Shown here: one piece after another, positions 19,641 to 48,350 of the stretch
How the letters are laid out: every line of letters starts with the position of its first letter
How positions within the stretch are numbered: the stretch's first letter is position 1
Origin: Sedimentisphaerales bacterium
GTDB taxonomy: Bacteria; Planctomycetota; Phycisphaerae; Sedimentisphaerales; SM23-30
Direction: 5' to 3' (one strand)
Length of the DNA: 64,000 nt
NCBI GenBank assembly: GCA_963666285.1
Contig: OY762711.1
Made by a program: the position numbers and the translations under genes
The notes under the pieces: generated by a model
The model's database searches: none
Told to the model about the DNA's origin: nothing
Seen by the model: the letters and a program-made list of their open reading frames with translations, nothing else

Positions 19641-19667
19641 CTCAAGCTGACCATCAGTCAGTTTGAG
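19641..19667. repeat. 27-bp REP-like palindrome, copy 1, preceded by a CTAATAC-type heptamer tract
   Basis: ctcaagctgaccatcagtcagtttgag; related copies at 23360-23386 and 30067-30093. Confidence 0.8.
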
Positions 19668-23359: not shown

Positions 23360-23386
23360 CTCAAACTGACCATCGGCCAGTTTGAG
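23360..23386. repeat. 27-bp REP-like palindrome, copy 2
   Basis: ctcaaactgaccatcggccagtttgag. Confidence 0.8.
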
Positions 23387-28412: not shown

Positions 28413-30057
28413 CCCGGACAAGCCGGAACCAAACAGGTTTTTATAATTATATTTACGCTGCATAAGAATTCCACGATAATGTATCAGAATTATTATGCAG
28501 AACTTTATTGAACGACATTTTAACAAAATTAAGGGAGTTACCTCCTGTTTTGACCGTGTCATATTTACTGGTACAATACCGGGAATATGTTTTGCCGATG
28601 GAATGACTGTGCATTTGCGTAAACACAACATTCGAATATTTGATTTCACTAAATGGGCTGAACCTTTGCGTGACCTCATTAATGAAAACGCCAAAGTTGT
28701 TGCATCTGACAATGGTCTTGAGATAGAATTTATTCGTAAAAAGAATTTCCGCAAAGAGAAAGTTATTAAACAGATAATTGACCAAAGAGGTAATCACCCT
28801 GGGCTGGTACATATTTTCTCGGCTATGGAAACCTGCAGCAGCTATGAACCATGGCATAACAAACAAACCGGAAAAACTTATATTAGAGGTTCTCAGGGAA
28901 GGTGTTTGCATTATTATTTCTATTTTATTGATAAAGCATTGGGGCTCTGCTATTTGAGAGTACCAACCTGGGCTCCGTTCCGATTGCAATTGTACTTTAA
29001 CGGTCATAATCAACTGGCTGCTAAATTGAAAAGTAAAAATATCGATTACACCATGCTTGACAATGTTTTTATTGATATCGAAGATTTCGACAAGGCCCAA
29101 AAGCTCAGTGACAGCCTTAGCGTCAACCAGCTTCATCGCATTATTGAAAAATATGCTACTACTTATTGTCCTGTAATTACAGAGCTTAAGGAAAATTTCC
29201 ACTGGAGTATAATGCAGGCGGAATATGCTACAGACATTGTTTTCAAAAAACAATCTGACCTGACCTGTATATATGAGGAATTGACCAGAACAGCTATTCA
29301 TTCGGTTAAGGCTGATAATATCGCCACCTTCCTGGGAAGAAAGTTGTATACCAGCTATGAAGGTGAAATGGGCAATGACTTTAGCACCAGAATTGAAGGC
29401 ACACGGATAAAACATCACATGGGGCCGGCTTCTGTCAAAATGTACGATAAGCATAAGCTTGTTCTGCGAATTGAGACAACAGTTAATGATGTCAGCTTTT
29501 TCAAACACTACCGCAAGGTGGAACATCGCGACGGCACAACGAGCATGAAGCAGGCTCCGTTGCGTAAAAGTATTTATTCCTTTCCGGTTCTCACCGACCT
29601 GCTTGCCGCTTCTAATAGAAGATATATTGACTTTATCTCGGCTATTGATGACCCTACCTCTGCTAATAAGGATATTGATAAAATCTCCAGAGCTAAAAAG
29701 AAAAACGGTCGCAGTTTCAAAGGGTTTAATCTGTTCAACAAAGATGACCTTAAACTGATGCAAACTGTGTTGAGAGGAGAATTTAATATCAATGGCTTTA
29801 CCAGCAAACTTTTGAGAAAACACATGGGTAATAAAACCCCTAATCAGGTCTCCAGGATGCTCAAAAGACTCCGAATACATGGCCTGATTAAGAAAATCGG
29901 AAAAACGTACAAATACTATCTGACCAAAATGGGAAGAAGAGTTATTACCGCTGCTTTGAAAGCAAAGGAAATGCTCCTTATCCCTTTGCTCAGAGGTAAT
30001 TTGAACTAATTGTAATAATTTCTTTGCCATTTTGCGCAAAATTTTATTGGTAAGATA
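28413..30057 (+). mobile_element. Putative insertion element without long TIRs, flanked by CTAA direct repeats, inserted in a heptamer tract
   Basis: Flanks rejoin into the repeat seen uninterrupted at 19588-19667; CTAA at 28409-28412 and 30058-30061; left-end hairpin ccgg-acaag-ccgg. Confidence 0.75.
28495..30009 (+). CDS. Putative transposase with Rep_trans-like motifs and a C-terminal winged helix
   Basis: QAEYATD and KMYDK..VLRIETT resemble Rep_trans/phage gpII motifs; C-terminal SRMLKRLRIHGLIKK..Y.LT..GR; fills the element. Confidence 0.65.
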   Translation: MQNFIERHFNKIKGVTSCFDRVIFTGTIPGICFADGMTVHLRKHNIRIFDFTKWAEPLRDLINENAKVVASDNGLEIEFIRKKNFRKEKVIKQIIDQRGNHPGLVHIFSAMETCSSYEPWHNKQTGKTYIRGSQGRCLHYYFYFIDKALGLCYLRVPTWAPFRLQLYFNGHNQLAAKLKSKNIDYTMLDNVFIDIEDFDKAQKLSDSLSVNQLHRIIEKYATTYCPVITELKENFHWSIMQAEYATDIVFKKQSDLTCIYEELTRTAIHSVKADNIATFLGRKLYTSYEGEMGNDFSTRIEGTRIKHHMGPASVKMYDKHKLVLRIETTVNDVSFFKHYRKVEHRDGTTSMKQAPLRKSIYSFPVLTDLLAASNRRYIDFISAIDDPTSANKDIDKISRAKKKNGRSFKGFNLFNKDDLKLMQTVLRGEFNINGFTSKLLRKHMGNKTPNQVSRMLKRLRIHGLIKKIGKTYKYYLTKMGRRVITAALKAKEMLLIPLLRGNLN

Positions 30058-30066
30058 CTAATACCT

Positions 30067-30093
30067 CTCAAACTGGCCATCGGTCAGTTTGAG
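30067..30093. repeat. 27-bp REP-like palindrome, copy 3
   Basis: ctcaaactggccatcggtcagtttgag. Confidence 0.8.
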
Positions 30094-38045: not shown

Positions 38046-38081
38046 TACATTTTCCTTTCTTCTTCTAAAATTATATAAAGC

Positions 38082-38384
38082 TCTTCTATTATTTTATCAC
38101 AAACGAAACGAGTCACCTTATAATTATTGGTACTTATCGCAGCCTTGTATTTTTCAGTTCTTCTTAATTCTCAATTCTTATTTTTAATTTAAAGCATTCC
38201 CTTCATGGCCAGGTAATATTCTTTGCGAGCTCTGCGGCCTCTGCGAGCAACAGTATTTTTTTCGTATTGTTTTTTAATAACGTCCATAAAATATTACAAT
38301 ATATAATTGCAACAATTATAAAAGAGCCAACATATGCGTCAGCTTTTAAAATAAGGTCCAGTACCGTACGGTGCAGAACACCTC
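38082..38384 (-). repeat. Partial third copy (AT-rich outer tail only) of the large repeat element
   Basis: ttatcacaaacgaaacgagtcaccttataattattgg..., cccttcatggccaggtaatattctttgcga.ctctgcggcctctgcgagcaacagta shared with 40628-40810 and, inverted, with 46585-46711 and 48124-48175. Confidence 0.9.
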
Positions 38385-40627: not shown

Positions 40628-41381
40628 TCTTCTATTATTTTATCACAAACGAAACGAGTCACCTTATAATTATTGGCACTTATCCGTAGCCGTGGTTTTT
40701 AATGTCAATTATTTTTTTAATTTTTAATTTTGAATTCTTAATTTAATGCTTTCCCTTCATGGCCAGGTAATATTCTTTGCGACCTCTGCGGCCTCTGCGA
40801 GCAACAGTATTTTTTCGTGTTCTTTCGTGAATTTTCGTGGTTGACAATCTTTTTCAGAATTCTGAATTTAAATATGCGACAGCTTTAAAATAAGTTGTGA
40901 GCGACAGCGAATTATTCCTGATGTCAACGTACATCAGGACACCTCCTTTACAATTTTTATTTTACCCTTTACACTTTGATGCCGCTTCGCGGTATCTGGT
41001 CTGCCCAGCAGCTAAAAACAGGTCGAAAGCCTCAATGTAAATTTCCGCCGTTATAGCTCCGCGGCCCGTAGCGCACCCGCCGTTGGCCTGCCGCACTACC
41101 GCCGCATACTCTCCGTTTGTATTCCGTGATACCACAAGAGCTCTTCTCACCGCCGCGCCAATCCACAGCTCCTCCGCAAGCCGCCGTGGCCCGCGGCCCG
41201 GTCTCCGTCACTCGCCGCTGGCCGACTCAGCCGGTTTCAGCTCTTCTTCCCGCCGCGCTAGCGCCGCGGCCCGCCGTTTATACTCCGTTATCCGCCCGCG
41301 AATATTCCGCAGGTCGTCGCGGTTCCTCCGTTTCGATCTATGGCCGTTCGTACAAAAAAATACAATTATAAACCACACTCC
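40628..41381 (-). repeat. Large non-coding element, left copy: phased RCGG array (about 41000-41353) plus AT-rich tail
   Basis: Reverse complement aligns almost throughout with 44492-45014, 46585-46711 and 48124-48175. Confidence 0.93.
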
Positions 41382-41444
41382 AAAAGCTTTGATCGCCACA
41401 TCCGCTTTTGGTAGCACCAAAATCTAATCCGTTACTCATTTCAA

Positions 41445-43508
41445 CTATTCGGCAGGAACAAATATCCTCGGATTTGCCAGCAAAGTTTCAGCGGCAAAAG
41501 CCATCATCGCCAGTATCAGCAAAGGCACAAAAAGGTCAAATCTTGCAGTACGCAAAAATGCCAGTTTGCTATAGTCGGTGTACTGGTCAATAGTAGCTAT
41601 ACTATGAGCTATCCCGCCAAAAAGTTCGATACTGGTAGTACCATCAGGCATATAATCAAATCGCCCTTCATCGCTATCAGAACTAAATGCCACGGCATAA
41701 CGTCCTTTATCACAATCAATTAGCAATACCGCAGGCCTAACCGGCGAGACAAAACCCAGATAGTCGCCTGTATAGTCAACAGTATCACCGGCGATAGATA
41801 ACGCATGGATATTACCGGCAAAGATATTCACCGGCAGTTCCTGACCGGCCGCCAGGTGGATCACATGTTTGTCCAACGCATCTAAGTTACTGCTGTCATC
41901 AGGTTTAACAACAACCATATTCTGTGCCATAACCACACTCAGCGGCTGCTTGGGCAGGCTGCTCCAGCGGGTGTCAAAAGCCATCCCCAGCACATAAACA
42001 TTGCCTTTGCCGACCTTCCGGCGTGACATGACAATATCCTTATATCCTGCTCCTAAAAGGGTTTCTGTTCCGCTGGTAAGCTTGAGCTTATAGCCCTGCC
42101 AGATGGTCATATCCTCAACGTTTATCTGCCTGGAACCAAAGACTTTATACCAGAACTCACTCTTACGGTCCATCACTTCCAGCCGCCTGCCCTGGCTCTC
42201 GGCAAACCGCTGCTGAACTTCTGCACCCATAAAATCAGGCAGTACTACTTCACTGCCACGCTCGCTGACTGCCGGAACTGCAACCAGGTTGCCGCCATCG
42301 TTTACATAGCTTTCAAGCCAGCCGGGGTTAGTCTTGTCCAATGCTGTAACCGACTGCCAGGTAAGTACTAACATCTCAGGCTTTGACTCATTTACATACT
42401 CATAAACCCTGCCGACCGCACGGAAGGTTGTACCAATTCCGGTAAAAGATGCATCACCAAGCGGCGAAACTGCCAGTGGTAATAAACCATACTCATTCGG
42501 CGAACCGGCAAAAACTACGTTCGCCGGTGACCCGCAGCTTACTACTGCCATGCCGTAACCATCGGCATTAAAGCTGTCACCCTCAATGTGGGCCGACCAT
42601 GACCGAAACCCGCTTTCACCCGGCGGCAGCTGCATCGTTACCATCCGGCTCGACCCCTGCTGCATATCGACATCCCGACTCTCAACTGAGCCGGTACCAT
42701 CATCTAATACCAGGGTAACATTTCCGTCATAATCGCTTGTATTTTCCAGGTTTATGTTCACTGTCGCCGGGTGGCCGGGCAGTATCATCTCCGGCGGATA
42801 GCTAATTGACCGGATAGCAACATTTGCCCCGTTCTGGTCCTGCGGCATGATCTTGTGCACCTGTATCGATACATCTTTGGCACCACCGATAGTCCCGGCA
42901 TATTCAAACTGATGACGCTGCAGGTCGGTAAAAATATGAATTGTACCGCCGGTCTCCAGTAGATCAATAGATTCCCTAACTGCTTTTAACAAATCACCTT
43001 GTGAATATGTTGGCAATACCTGGTCTATAGCTTCCAGGATAAGATTGCGGTCTGTCACTATGGTATCGGGCAGCTTAGAAATTGATGGATCAACAACAAC
43101 AGTCCGCAGCCCAAAGCTCCCTTTGTCTATTGTTCCCAGCAGTTTACCGGCAGCATCCTTAGCCATATCCAGGCAGGTGATATGCCCACCCTGCTCAATT
43201 CGCAGCATAGAGGCAGAGTTATCAATAACCACGACCATCGAAGTAACACCACTTTTGGAAGTACCGCCAAGATTGAATGACGGTCGGCTGAGAGCAAGCA
43301 GCAGAAAGGCCAATACCAACATACGCATAAGTAAGACCAGTAACTGTCGTAACTTATGACGTGCGGTCATCTTGGGATCGGTCTTGTGAAAGAACATAAG
43401 AGTCGGAAACTGGACGTACCTTTTCTTTTGCTTGAGCAAAAAATGGAATACAATCGGCAGCCCGGCCAGCGGCAGCAGCATAAGAAAGAAACCCGATGAA
43501 AATATCAT
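41445..43508 (-). CDS. BatA N-terminal domain plus vWA domain membrane protein
   Basis: LPIVFHFL.......FPTL.F, LLMR.L....L.LAL.RP, VVIDNSASM (MIDAS), IFTDLQ; C-terminal TM. Confidence 0.88.
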   Translation of the reverse strand: MIFSSGFFLMLLPLAGLPIVFHFLLKQKKRYVQFPTLMFFHKTDPKMTARHKLRQLLVLLMRMLVLAFLLLALSRPSFNLGGTSKSGVTSMVVVIDNSASMLRIEQGGHITCLDMAKDAAGKLLGTIDKGSFGLRTVVVDPSISKLPDTIVTDRNLILEAIDQVLPTYSQGDLLKAVRESIDLLETGGTIHIFTDLQRHQFEYAGTIGGAKDVSIQVHKIMPQDQNGANVAIRSISYPPEMILPGHPATVNINLENTSDYDGNVTLVLDDGTGSVESRDVDMQQGSSRMVTMQLPPGESGFRSWSAHIEGDSFNADGYGMAVVSCGSPANVVFAGSPNEYGLLPLAVSPLGDASFTGIGTTFRAVGRVYEYVNESKPEMLVLTWQSVTALDKTNPGWLESYVNDGGNLVAVPAVSERGSEVVLPDFMGAEVQQRFAESQGRRLEVMDRKSEFWYKVFGSRQINVEDMTIWQGYKLKLTSGTETLLGAGYKDIVMSRRKVGKGNVYVLGMAFDTRWSSLPKQPLSVVMAQNMVVVKPDDSSNLDALDKHVIHLAAGQELPVNIFAGNIHALSIAGDTVDYTGDYLGFVSPVRPAVLLIDCDKGRYAVAFSSDSDEGRFDYMPDGTTSIELFGGIAHSIATIDQYTDYSKLAFLRTARFDLFVPLLILAMMAFAAETLLANPRIFVPAE

Positions 43509-44419
43509 ACTGCCCTGCTCCTTTCGAGCAGCACATCATATATCTCACGACTGGTTTCAGCCAGAACATACTGGCCGCGAATATTCATAACCCCTTGCCG
43601 AAGCTCGTTTAAGTAGCTGTGCACCTGGTCCTGATAGCTTTCCTTGATCTGGTCGAGATCTACCAGTACCTTACCACCTGTCTCCATACATTCGATATCG
43701 GCCATGGATACGCCATCAGAAAACGCATCGGAAGGCAGCCGCAGTTCGGCCGGGTCGAGTACATGATAGATACTAAGCTCTTTGCCCTCATGGTAGAGGT
43801 GTCTCATGCCGGTGAGGATACTGTTCGGCTCTTCGAGCAGGTCGGAGATAACAACTATAAGTGCTTTACCTTTAACCAGTTCCGCGGTTTTATGCAGTAC
43901 CGATTCCAGGTCACTTTTGCCGCCGGGCTGAACGGCATCGAGATTCTGTAGAATCGGTTTAAGCCCCATATAGTTTGATGCCGGGCCGACATGATCGATA
44001 ATCTTGTTATCAAAAGTAATAAGTGAAACGGAATCGCCCTGCCGAGTCATGGCATATGCCATGCCGGCGGCGAGATAGCAGCTGTACTCAAGTTTGGTAA
44101 GCCCGCCTATGCCGCTGTTATGGTAGGCCATACTATTGGAAGTATCGAGCAGGATATGACATCTGATACTAACATCCTCGTGATACTGGCGGATAACGTA
44201 CCGGTCGCTTCGAGCGTAAACCGGCCAGTCAATACGACTTACGGGATCACCGGGAATGTATTCGCGATACTCGGCAAACTCAACCGACGAGCCGAAAGCG
44301 TTGGAATGGTGCAGACCCTGATAGTGGCCGTCCATCGGCCGCCTTACGGTATACTCCAGGGCATGAAGCCGTTCGGCCATAGTCGCGGGCAGATATTTGT
44401 AGCTGTTTTCTGATGCCAT
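43505..44419 (-). CDS. DUF58 domain protein (MoxR-associated vWA-like)
   Basis: G.H.S..FG.SVEFAEYREY.PGD...IDW.VYAR, LLD.S.SM, VISDL; start at ATG 44419; overlaps the next start (ATGA). Confidence 0.92.
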   Translation of the reverse strand: MASENSYKYLPATMAERLHALEYTVRRPMDGHYQGLHHSNAFGSSVEFAEYREYIPGDPVSRIDWPVYARSDRYVIRQYHEDVSIRCHILLDTSNSMAYHNSGIGGLTKLEYSCYLAAGMAYAMTRQGDSVSLITFDNKIIDHVGPASNYMGLKPILQNLDAVQPGGKSDLESVLHKTAELVKGKALIVVISDLLEEPNSILTGMRHLYHEGKELSIYHVLDPAELRLPSDAFSDGVSMADIECMETGGKVLVDLDQIKESYQDQVHSYLNELRQGVMNIRGQYVLAETSREIYDVLLERSRAV

Positions 44420-44429
44420 ATAGTTTCCT

Positions 44430-44458
44430 ATTTTAGCTTTACGATTGCCAAGTATCAA
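44430..44458 (-). promoter_or_regulatory. Predicted sigma70 promoter for DUF58-BatA
   Basis: TTGATA-17 nt-TAAAAT, 10 nt upstream of ATG 44419. Confidence 0.45.
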
Positions 44459-45137
44459 TGACTAATAAAGTGAATCGAAGGTGTGATGTTCGGTATGTTG
44501 GTTTGTAATATGTTTTATCGGTACGAACGGTCACAGATCGAAACGGAGTAGCCGCGACGGCCTGCGGAATATTCGCGGGCGGATAACGGAGCATAAACGG
44601 CGGGCCGCGGCGCTAGCGCGGCGGGAAGAAGAGCTGAAACCGGCTGAGTCGGCCAGTGGCGTTTAACGGAGACCGGGCGGCGGGCCACGGCGGCTTACGG
44701 CGGGCCAGCGGATTGGCGCGGCGGTGAGAAGAGCTCTTGTGGTATCACGGAATACAAACGGAGAGTATGCGGCGGTAGTGCGGCAGGCCAACGGCGGTAG
44801 TGCGGCGGGCTGCGGAGCTATAACGGCGGAAATTTACATTGAGGCTTTCGGCCTGTTTTTGGGTGTTGGGCAGACCAGATGCCGCGAAGCGGCTTTTAAA
44901 GTGTAAAGGGTAAAATAAAAAGTGTAAAGGAGGTGTTCGCCTGGCGGCTCACAACTTATTTTAAAGCTTTCGCATATTTAAATTCAGAATTATGAAAAAG
45001 ATTGTCAACCACGAAAATACAATGAAAGCCAGAATATTCCTGTAGCATGGCTTGTGTTATAATACACAATAATTTTAGCACGAGCTGTCACAGGGACGCT
45101 CAAATATTTAACCAATTTTATACGGAGTATTCTGGCT

Positions 45138-46184
45138 ATGAAGACTATTATGTCAATTGATTTAGGAAAATTCAAGAGTGTAGTTTGTTTTTATGAGGTA
45201 AAAAGCTGTAAGGCTATATATAAGTCGTTTAAGACTAACCCTCAAGAGCTTCATGACCTGGCAGTATCTCACCCTGCTGATCTTATTGTATTTGAGGCTT
45301 GTGATATCATAGGCTGGATTTGTGACCTTTTTGACACCCTGGAATTAAAATATGAAGTGGCAAATACTAATACCGGCGAATGGTCTGGCAGAAAATTGAA
45401 GAAGAAAACAGATAAAAAGGATGCATTTTGGCTGGCCAAGCGTGCTGCTTTAGGAGATTTATCAACTGTCTATGTTCCTAAAAAGGAAATTCGAGAGAAA
45501 CGATCTTTAATTAATTATCGCCAGAGCCTTACAGAACGGATAACTCAGGTAAAAAATACTATTCGTTCTTTATTAAATGCCCAGGCGTATTCGTTGCCGT
45601 CAGGCAGAAAGTGCTGGTCTAAGCAGAATCTGGAACAGTTAAGAAGTATGGCTATGCCAATGGATAAAGTTAAACCAGATGAGCTCTGGAAAGGCAATCT
45701 ATGGAGCGAGCTTATATTACTGGAACAATTAACAGACGCTTTGCAAGTAGTTGAAGATAAACTGGAAGAGTTAAATAGTACTGATGAAAAGGTAAAACTA
45801 TTACAGACTGTTCCCGGAGTTGGCCCACGTCTGGCAGAGGCAGTTGCAGCTTATATTGATGATCCACATAGATTTAAGAATTGCAAACAAGTTGGCAGCT
45901 ATATTGGTATGACACCGCGTCAGTACCAATCAGGTAATACAGACCGTCATGGGCGGATAAGTAAATATGGCAATAGGTTATTGCGAGCATTACTTGTTGA
46001 GGTTTGCTGGCTGGGTTTGCGTTGGAATCCATGGATAAAAGAAACATACGAAAGAATAAAGAGGGGAAGTAAAACTCGTGCAAAAATAGCGATAGTAGCT
46101 ACAGCCCGACGGTTGTTCGTACGATTGTGGGCGATGATGCGAGATGGGACAAGTTGGCAGATGCCTGAATTGCAAAGTGTTTGA
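45138..46184 (+). CDS. IS110 family DEDD recombinase/transposase
   Basis: IDLGK, FEAC, KTDKKDA, TVPGVG, GMTPRQYQSG, GRISK.GN..LR. Confidence 0.95.
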   Translation: MKTIMSIDLGKFKSVVCFYEVKSCKAIYKSFKTNPQELHDLAVSHPADLIVFEACDIIGWICDLFDTLELKYEVANTNTGEWSGRKLKKKTDKKDAFWLAKRAALGDLSTVYVPKKEIREKRSLINYRQSLTERITQVKNTIRSLLNAQAYSLPSGRKCWSKQNLEQLRSMAMPMDKVKPDELWKGNLWSELILLEQLTDALQVVEDKLEELNSTDEKVKLLQTVPGVGPRLAEAVAAYIDDPHRFKNCKQVGSYIGMTPRQYQSGNTDRHGRISKYGNRLLRALLVEVCWLGLRWNPWIKETYERIKRGSKTRAKIAIVATARRLFVRLWAMMRDGTSWQMPELQSV

Positions 46185-46199
46185 TACCAATATAAGTAA

Positions 46200-46560
46200 A
46201 ATATAAATATTACCTATGATTTTGCCCGATTGAAATCGATACGGAACCTTGGTCGTGCATTTGGGTTTTGAACCTGACACGAAAATTAAGCCGTATCGCA
46301 ATATATATAATGGAACCATGGCGTAAAATACAGCCTCGGACACTCCGGATAGAAAGATGAAACAATCAGGTAAATAATGATTCGCTACGCGAAAATTGTT
46401 TTAAATAGGTTTATCGCATAAGGTCAAAAAGCAAAAAACGAGGCGGTGTAAAACCGCCCCGGCTTCTTGACAACTTGCAACGCTCGGGTTGCTCCTCAGC
46501 AGAGCCCTATCCTTTGCAAGATAAAGGAATTATAGCAAAAATGAATAAAATTAGAAAATT
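46200..46560 (+). ncRNA. Predicted bridge/seek RNA region of the IS1111 element (ends unknown)
   Basis: Stem cgatacgg/ccgtatcg (46237-46298) encloses two guide-like segments matching the insertion site, separated by a small hairpin. Confidence 0.7.
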
Positions 46561-46777
46561 AATGTTGCATTCTGGCTTCATAGAAAATTCACGAAAGAAC
46601 ACGAAAAAAACACTGTTGCTCGCAGAGGCCGCAGAGCTCGCAAAGAATATTATTTGGCCATGAATGGAAAACTTTAAATTAAGAATTCAAAATTAAGAAT
46701 TAAGAAGAACTTGTCTGGTCCTGTGATAAGTTGTCACATTATAGATTTAATGTTTTAACAAATAACAGGAGACAACA

Positions 46778-47197
46778 ATGTTGGTAAGTAAACGAACTTA
46801 TAATCGCTACAGCGAAGCCTTTAAATTACAGGTGGTAAATGATCTTGAATCTGGTAAGCTAAGCAGTATTTATGAGGCTAATTCCCGCTATGGGATTTCT
46901 GGTACAACAACAGTAAAGAGTTGGCTAAGAAAATATGGCCGTAACCATTTGATACCAAAGGTGATACGCGTGGAAAAACTAGATGAACAAGATCATGTAA
47001 AGAAGTTAGAATCAGAGATTAAGCAGCTTAAAGAAGCGTTAGCAGACAGCCATATAGAGAATATTGTAAGTGAAGCCAGGTTTCAGGTTATTTGTAAAGA
47101 ATACGGGCTGGATCCCGAGGAGTATAAAAAAAAAGTCGATACCAAACGGTTCAACAAGCGTCCGAGGCAACCGTTGAAAAGAAAGAGGAAAAAATAG
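46778..47197 (+). CDS. IS3 OrfA (HTH)
   Basis: RYSEAFKLQVV...YGI...TV..W.RKYG; A9G slippery run at 47126-47135. Confidence 0.9.
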   Translation: MLVSKRTYNRYSEAFKLQVVNDLESGKLSSIYEANSRYGISGTTTVKSWLRKYGRNHLIPKVIRVEKLDEQDHVKKLESEIKQLKEALADSHIENIVSEARFQVICKEYGLDPEEYKKKVDTKRFNKRPRQPLKRKRKK

Positions 47198-47226
47198 CGA
47201 TAACTTCCTTATGCAAAGCTGTTGGC

Positions 47227-48012
47227 ATGAGTCGTCAGAATTATTATAAATCACATAAAGTTCGGCGCAGGCGGCACTATGAAAAAGACCTGATAATATC
47301 TTTGGCCAGGCTGGAAAGATCATTGCAGCCTGAGATGGGTTGCAGAAAGGTTTTGAAGCGTATAAAGCCCAAACTGGCAAAAGCCGGTATTAGTATAGGG
47401 CGAGATAGATTTTATGAAACGATGTCAGAAGCAGATATGTTGATAGAGCGTAAAAAGCGAAGTGTGACAACGACAGACAGTCGTCATAACTTTAAGACTT
47501 ATAAGAATATACTGAAAGATGAAGAGCTTACAGGAGCCAATCAGGCCCTGGTAAGTGATATAACGTACATATATACAGATGAAGGATTTATGTATCTGTC
47601 GTTGATAATGGATGCATTTAGTCGCAAGATAGTTGGCTATGACTGTAGTGATAGTTTGGAAGCAGAAGGTTGTTTGCGTGCATTAACAAAGGCGATAAAG
47701 CAATTGCCCAAAGGTAGTAATACGATACATCATTCAGATCGTGGCAGTCAGTATTGCTGCCATAGATATATAGATAAGCTTAAAAGAAATGGGCTGCGAG
47801 TTAGTATGACCGAAGATAATCATTGTTATGAGAATGCCCAGGCCGAGAGGTTAAACGGTATATTGAAGCACGAGTATGGATTGAAGAATACGTTTAAGAA
47901 AAAAGCTCATGTTCATGCTGCGGTTAAACAGGCGATAGAACTGTATAATACCTGTCGTCCACATTTTGCTTTGGGATATCGTGTGCCTGAGGAAGTGCAT
48001 ATGGCGGCGTGA
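47227..48012 (+). CDS. IS3 OrfB (DDE integrase core), probably expressed as OrfAB by -1 frameshift
   Basis: SDITYI, HHSDRGSQY, ENAQAERLNGILK.EY; the -1 frame is open from the A9G run. Confidence 0.92.
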   Translation: MSRQNYYKSHKVRRRRHYEKDLIISLARLERSLQPEMGCRKVLKRIKPKLAKAGISIGRDRFYETMSEADMLIERKKRSVTTTDSRHNFKTYKNILKDEELTGANQALVSDITYIYTDEGFMYLSLIMDAFSRKIVGYDCSDSLEAEGCLRALTKAIKQLPKGSNTIHHSDRGSQYCCHRYIDKLKRNGLRVSMTEDNHCYENAQAERLNGILKHEYGLKNTFKKKAHVHAAVKQAIELYNTCRPHFALGYRVPEEVHMAA

Positions 48013-48350
48013 TATATTCCTCCGTTCCGGTCGCCCTTCGGGCTCCCTGCACTACGGAATATATCATCAAAAAACAATAGTAAATAGAAACGGAAAGTGA
48101 CAACTTTAAATCAGGACTTGACACTGAAAAATACAAGACTGCGATAAGTGCCAATAATTATAAGGTGGCTCGTTTCAGCCTTCGCTAAAGCTATGGTTCA
48201 ACAAGACCGCACGTGATTAATAATTTTGAACCACTGATGCACGCGGATGGACACCGATAAGAAAATGTTTAGAGATAACTAACAAATTAAATGCAGTTGA
48301 ACTTCAAACATAGAACAAAAATAATAGTAGTATTAGAGAATGCTGCTTTT

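Follow-up and report, generated by a model that had tools for sequence, protein, structure and literature searches.

The 64,000-nt stretch of a Sedimentisphaerales bacterium chromosome analysed here (hereafter the window; contig OY762711.1 of assembly GCA_963666285.1, positions 4608001-4672000 of the host genome) carries two outward-pointing non-coding elements, both of which are members of a repeat family with about 70 copies on the host chromosome. The core of this family, missed in the preliminary description of the locus, runs from an array of RCGG motifs through three phased A/T tracts to an 11-bp dyad box, TGG(T/G)-N3-ACCA. We put at about even the chance that the family is a non-autonomous mobile repeat and that its core serves as a protein assembly site on double-stranded DNA, nucleated at the box and built up head to tail. 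The two elements had been described as inverted copies, and this was borne out by arms of 422 nt (40954-41375 and 44499-44920) that are 88% complementary, with the repeat extending beyond them to 40628 on the left and, across two insertion sequence (IS) elements, to 48176 on the right.

The RCGG array and its register with the dyad box

The core parts of the two copies in the window are:

41048..41347, minus strand: left RCGG array, three phased blocks
41008..41047, minus strand: left 40-bp spacer with phased A/T tracts and without RCGG
40997..41007, minus strand: left outer dyad box, a TGGG variant, the family anchor
41409..41419, strand not assigned: perfect copy of the dyad box, TGGT-N3-ACCA, inward of the left array
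44527..44826, plus strand: right RCGG array, three phased blocks
44827..44866, plus strand: right 40-bp spacer with phased A/T tracts
44867..44877, plus strand: right outer dyad box, TGGG variant

All 20 CGG positions reported earlier for the right array were found, each preceded by A or G, and their 10-11-bp spacing lies far above both kinds of control. The right copy has 20 motif pairs at a lag of 10 or 11 bp among 34 motifs, compared to a mean of 1.2 (maximum 8) in 5000 dinucleotide shuffles and of 6.7 (maximum 16) when 34 motifs were placed at random 20000 times; the left copy has 14 such pairs among 30 motifs (shuffles: mean 1.0, maximum 6; placements: mean 5.2, maximum 13). The left and right arrays align gap-free, as had been stated, and a 10-bp palindrome (44729-44738) sits between blocks 2 and 3 of the right array. 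With periods of 10.77, 10.37 and 10.86 bp in the three blocks, the proposal that some 20 sites share one face of the helix holds within each block but not across them, since the gaps between blocks measure 48 bp (44619-44667; 4.5 turns) and 29 bp (44719-44748; 2.7 turns), so that the three blocks do not lie on one helical face. The expected spectral peak near 10.7 bp did not appear as a sharp peak in the spectrum of the whole array. Across the chromosome, 45 chains of at least five RCGG motifs at lag 10/11 were found, while no other motif class, out of 127, exceeded 3 and lags of 12-20 gave none. Lags within the family are mixed (278 of 11 bp and 192 of 10 bp; mean period 10.59 bp), and no RCGG periodicity was seen genome-wide in coding DNA.

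The statement that differences between the copies fall mostly between the motifs fails for the window pair taken alone (6/78 core vs. 12/186 other positions mismatched) and holds when four pairs are pooled (12/271 vs. 83/792, p=0.002). In an alignment of block 3 from 8 copies, one per pair, the CGG columns match at 0.89-0.91 and the columns elsewhere at 0.46-0.73.

The family anchor is a variant of the 11-bp dyad TGGT-N3-ACCA. In 30 of 35 arrays, which fall in 17 sequence clusters with diverged copies included, the last RCGG lies either 43-44 bp (21 arrays) or 53-55 bp (9 arrays) before the box, the rest being at 67 and 97 bp. Relative to the box, 20 hand-picked and partly related representatives show A/T tract peaks at -10, -20 and -29 and RCGG peaks at -43/44, -54/55 and -64/65, with a phase coherence of 0.54 vs. 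0.15 (0/5000 shifted controls). The perfect box is found at 66 intergenic sites, as compared to 5-22 for other spacings, and within 250 bp upstream of 11 of 62 arrays, where 0.9 are expected. Several arrays carry a box at both ends, and the perfect dyad occupies the anchor position in diverged solitary arrays. Likenesses of the anchor to a transposon end or a sigma-54 promoter were considered and set aside, since it is the dyad that diverged copies retain.

Boxes without arrays, around which A/T phasing of this kind is absent, occur in the host genome and in its congeners. The box is enriched in congener G003 (20 vs. 4) and weakly in congener G001 (14 vs. 11), and none of 20 inspected congener boxes has an array beside it, indicating that the box predates the arrays. 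It is an intergenic-enriched palindrome with GT...AC arms, as are operators of GntR-family regulators, and a 3-nt spacing within the palindrome marks the FadR subfamily of this group. The genes adjoining boxes are mixed. A box also stands upstream of apparently the same glycosyltransferase gene in G003 and on the host chromosome (near 5933496), which hints at an ancestral regulator site.

Family size, twin copies and the outer tail

A scan of the chromosome detected phased RCGG chains at 52 loci, of which 44 fall outside long open reading frames (ORFs). A conserved 14-mer downstream of the array gave 159 relaxed matches, 62 of which lie in repeated DNA; excluding two of the latter as chance matches within genes left 60 copies, and about ten more diverged copies found later bring the family to about 70. 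By length there are 12 long arrays like those in the window, 31 near-identical copies with a 950-bp left part, and short ones, spread along the chromosome with a median gap of 65 kb.

Among the genomes searched the family is confined to one, and we consider it probably lineage-specific and young. A five-motif pattern had 42 matches in the host genome (control 1) and at most one in each of 150 other genomes of the order; 69 of 400 genomes of the phylum had matches, with a highest count of 22 (control 18), and those listed were simple repeats or GC-rich chance matches. A pattern combining array and box had 20 matches in the host genome (control 0) and at most 2 in 250 genomes of the class, and a DNA search of 40 relatives returned a single 29-bp match (E 8e-4). 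Scans for exact patterns, which would miss families with another core word, gave 16 loci in GTDB, each of which we attribute to chance or to a simple repeat in GC-rich DNA, 0 and 1 locus in JGI data, the latter a chance GC-rich match, and no match in plasmid and phage collections. A scan of viral contigs yielded at least 61 loci, mostly perfect 11-bp repeats, with no notable common flanking protein among the matches listed. Five viral contigs have 11-bp ACGG-core repeats, iteron-like in appearance, in ORFs resembling phage replication initiators, and genome G210 has an 11-bp ACGG-core array in a small ORF just before its C-terminus, which we take to be winged-helix-like. No description of such arrays was found in the literature searched, which largely excludes subscription papers.

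Six of the seven neighbouring copies less than 10 kb apart are divergent and none are convergent. Five outward-pointing pairs enclose ordinary host genes, and the twins of a pair are mutual nearest relatives, being 85-92% identical to each other vs. 55-81% to other copies. Transitions between twins of the five pairs are asymmetric (69 vs. 39), in the same direction on both replichores. The earlier suggestion of an arrangement for bidirectional action reads too much into a single pair: most copies stand alone, their orientation is unrelated to replication (33/60) or to flanking genes (31/29 and 32/28), and the locus lies about 1.1 Mb from the skew minimum. Divergent pairing is nevertheless non-random.

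Gene order suggests that cargo genes between twins may have been displaced. The third gene that follows DUF58-BatA in both congeners compared (2/2) lies 148 kb away in the host genome, 158 kb separate the second cargo from its conserved neighbour, the third has scattered neighbours and the fifth is uninformative, all against a background synteny with congeners that is low throughout. The displaced third gene of the DUF58-BatA operon (host 4499592-4503361) is preceded by two genes that resemble an AbiE-type pair. In-frame arrays were found in a PanE-like gene (93 bp) and a ferredoxin-like gene (about 108 bp), both arrays being absent in 3/3 congeners. An array-like stretch in a GGDEF gene (5619263-5620588) is not a net insertion and was not counted; this region is RCGG-rich with an anchor-like word, of normal length and of low similarity to the congeners, which may be chance or patch replacement.

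Neither a partner enzyme nor a known cassette was recognised. Of five matches to the Y1 (RAYT) transposase family PF01797 in the genome, none lies at the copies listed, and the reverse transcriptase matches are of the group II intron type, so that a reverse transcriptase as autonomous partner was rejected. Likewise, arms of GxxExxY nuclease cassettes were rejected, because no GxxExxY gene lies between the arrays; the host genome has no PF13366 match.

The AT-rich segment shared by the two copies had been placed on their inner side. It is in fact found on the outer side of the arrays and forms a separate mosaic, of heptamer runs and small palindromes, the latter confined to this tail. The enclosed genes, the tails and their insertions are:

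38079..38272, minus strand: third copy, tail only, oriented like the left copy (direct repeats D2, D9; inverted repeats I3, I5)
40628..40996, minus strand: left tail, a mosaic in which runs of purine-rich heptamers mix with small palindromes (repeat search and alignment; similar modules upstream of four-helix-bundle genes of the host genome)
41445..43508, minus strand: enclosed gene, BatA N-terminal and VWA protein of 687 aa (PF07584, PF13519; orthologues in congeners G001 and G003)
43505..44458, minus strand: enclosed gene, DUF58 protein, ATG at 44419 (PF01882; orthologues)
44878..45021, plus strand: right tail, first part (repeat search and alignment)
45022..46582, plus strand: IS110-family element within the right tail, ends approximate (transposase 45138-46184, PF02371, PF01548; repeat arms resume at 46583)
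46583..46711, plus strand: right tail, middle part (inverted repeats I2, I3, I9, I10)
46712..48122, plus strand: IS3-type element within the right tail, ends approximate (ORFs 46778-47197 and 47227-48012; PF01527, PF00665)
48123..48176, plus strand: right tail, end (inverted repeats I5, I7)

We read the tail as a mosaic of putative heptamer leaders that collects IS elements and introns. Similar modules of the same polarity precede at least five of nine four-helix-bundle genes inspected in the host genome. Among 51 loci, IS3-type genes adjoin 9 and IS110-type genes adjoin 7 (raw counts), and two intron reverse transcriptase genes are located in tails. The region 45310-46043 of the host chromosome contains two four-helix-bundle genes in tandem and the beginning of a third, and all three have the same heptamer leader. 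The same IS110 element was also seen in the same tail module at several chromosomal copies, suggesting that IS110 targets this repeat.

Contigs from two samples, possibly the source sample itself, cover 41284-44590, and the four joints fall in repeats, so that these contigs are unable to show the inversion. A 228-bp contig in one run of a second study, spanning 44437-44664, differs at 7 positions, all outside the six phased cores of block 1; at a depth of 3.6 this is weak evidence. Elsewhere in the window, two ORFs on opposite strands overlap fully (28453-30039, minus strand, 528 aa; 28495-30009, plus strand, 504 aa), neither with a Pfam match, and a 27-bp palindromic repeat at three intergenic sites (19641-19667, 23360-23386 and 30067-30093; D5, I15, I18) is another small dispersed repeat.

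A proposed protein assembly site and the competing explanations

On the reading that we favour, a dimeric host protein would bind the dyad box, an older operator-like site of the genus, and the A/T tracts would bend the spacer DNA. Monomers, either of this protein or of a winged-helix partner, would form a head-to-tail polymer over the RCGG sites in the manner of Xis or BldC. The unit would spread without an enzyme of its own, being copied in trans, and duplication may prefer nearby sites in opposite orientation, or neighbours may be homogenised later, which would leave any genes that happen to be in between flanked by outward-pointing twins. Heptamer leaders, IS elements and introns would afterwards gather in the tail. 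The protein platform proposed earlier is retained in this reading, as it fits the non-integer mean period, the conserved CGG cores, the fixed register to the box and the absence of an RNA fold; its one-face and bidirectional parts are not. We further propose, tentatively and as the less probable extension, a new class of mobile DNA in which a host operator has been captured with a phased landing strip beside it, the filament drives copying of the unit and relocation of host genes between outward twins, and free arrays grow into genes in frame, adding disordered protein segments.

Several observations weigh against the assembly site. A looser phase scan found 53 loci, yet three of five control periods gave 12-37 hits, and the register is inflated by shared ancestry because the 20 representatives were hand-picked and partly related. 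Conservation of the motifs is not seen in the window pair alone, and aligners favour matching motifs. Inspection by eye of 31 left ends of subfamily A and of tail ends, where true ends are not sharply defined, revealed no terminal inverted repeats or target duplications, and the fourth pair keeps the gene order of G003, so that duplicative inversion is not the general route. The congeners are without arrays, which fits badly with a host-essential role. The 11 GntR and 13 HTH_17 matches in the genome are candidates only, with no protein assigned, and no flanking gene recurs, other than transposases, that would point to one.

Of the competing explanations, a functionless selfish or mutational repeat, which we judge unlikely, would have arisen by slippage of 10/11-bp units and gene conversion at the shared RCGG core, its register being inherited from a founder. 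Unit-sized indels between copies, the perfect 11-bp ACGG tandem repeats common in viral contigs, the 15-20-nt words that in-gene and solitary arrays share with element copies, and the restriction to one genome among those searched are all consistent with it. In contrast, register and A/T phasing persist despite wide divergence of spacer and box, the cores are conserved over the spacers, and several arrays have the box at both ends. Still less probable, in our view, are chromosome-organising or topoisomerase sites, in which phased, bendable G/C and A/T DNA would be wrapped by gyrase or a nucleoid protein and twins would close small loops. PMC6379681 describes BIME-2 and the strong gyrase site of Mu as strong gyrase sites, with a periodic gyrase motif to which the block periods of 10.4-10.9 bp come near, and the spread of the copies along the chromosome would also suit such a role. 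However, the signal here is a specific four-letter word on one strand, unlike a degenerate GC wave; A/T tracts and RCGG sites show no antiphase relation, and the arrays are absent from congeners.

The G-rich strand might instead act as RNA, transcribed from a promoter formed by box and A/T tracts or as an array leader, with repeated words that bind an RNA-binding protein or form G-quadruplexes, and we regard this as very unlikely. Its polarity is that of the heptamer leaders of four-helix-bundle genes, all five in-gene chains (5/5) lie on the sense strand, and about one third of the cores read RCGGA; heptamer repeats have been proposed as translational control sites (PMC4679880). Against this, folding was no better than in shuffles (z -0.19 and +1.31), Rfam had no match at 40628-48176, its two hits outside the element being at chance level, copies are oriented without bias relative to the flanking genes, most G runs have a length of two, and a mean period of 10.6 bp is a property of duplex DNA. 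A structured non-coding RNA was thus rejected on the fold and Rfam tests. A replication origin or a decayed repeat-protein gene is largely refuted and, to us, highly improbable. Local GC skew does switch sign near 43-44 kb, and several phage genes that resemble replication initiators contain 11-bp ACGG repeats. The chromosomal skew minimum is, however, at 5.74 Mb and the locus at 4.65 Mb, and thus the window locus is not oriC; there are about 70 copies, and an iteron origin was rejected together with oriC since the locus is neither at the skew minimum nor beside an initiator gene. All frames contain stops, as had been noted (at least one in each of the 12), copies differ by 1-bp indels and no Pfam match was found, including for a 114-aa frame with a TTG start that overlaps the left copy, all of which speaks against a decayed gene.

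If the favoured reading is true, a family that conserves helical geometry would show how a protein-coated DNA platform arises, spreads within one species, alters the order of genes and adds stretches of peptide to enzymes. The rules of binding could be tested directly on the natural variants of one site, of which there are about 70. The protein partner would be a new DNA-coating protein in Planctomycetota, a phylum known for its unusual nucleoids.

Comparison with known systems

To our knowledge, nearly all bacterial dispersed repeats are palindromes or perfect tandem repeats. The present family probably works like a dispersed protein platform of the BIME type, and we file it among dispersed mosaic repeats. 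Like the BIME/REP sequences of E. coli, it is dispersed, intergenic and modular, exists in tens of copies, is a target of IS elements and is a plausible protein platform. It differs in that a direct-repeat array on one strand is phased to a dyad box, whereas REP units are stem-loops, and no Y1 transposase gene lies beside any copy listed here. Membership of the REP, BIME or REPIN families was rejected because the core folds no better than shuffles and has no linked Y1 gene, and membership of the MITEs or composite transposons because no terminal inverted repeats or target-site duplication were found by eye. The Rickettsia palindromic elements are a lineage-specific repeat that also occurs in frame inside conserved genes; in contrast, the insertions described here are non-palindromic phased arrays of differing sequence. 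A strong gyrase site is resembled in period alone.

The tail resembles intergenic heptamer repeats (PMC4679880), and the paired G-rich heptamer repeats of Xanthomonas (PMC4692102) likewise form close inverted pairs. Both are near-perfect 7-bp repeats whose pairs are convergent and adjacent, whereas the units here are degenerate and 10.6 bp long, and the pairs are divergent and 4-5 kb apart around genes. The dyad box has the palindrome with GT...AC arms of GntR operators, which often have extra half-sites 7-12 nt away, NanR and NagQ binding direct repeats (PMC4494728). Here, unlike in such operators, 43 bp separate the box from an array that can comprise 20 sites or more. In its direct repeats at one helical turn, the array itself resembles the sites of winged helix-turn-helix filaments. 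BldC, a protein similar to Xis, assembles head to tail on direct repeats whose number varies (PMC5859096), and the sites of BldC, Xis and RdfS filaments share with the RCGG arrays repeats of about one turn that are degenerate, directional and variable in number (PMC5859096; PMC11963761). The filament sites, however, are few in number and belong to promoters or att sites, whereas here they form a mobile family built on a GC-rich word.

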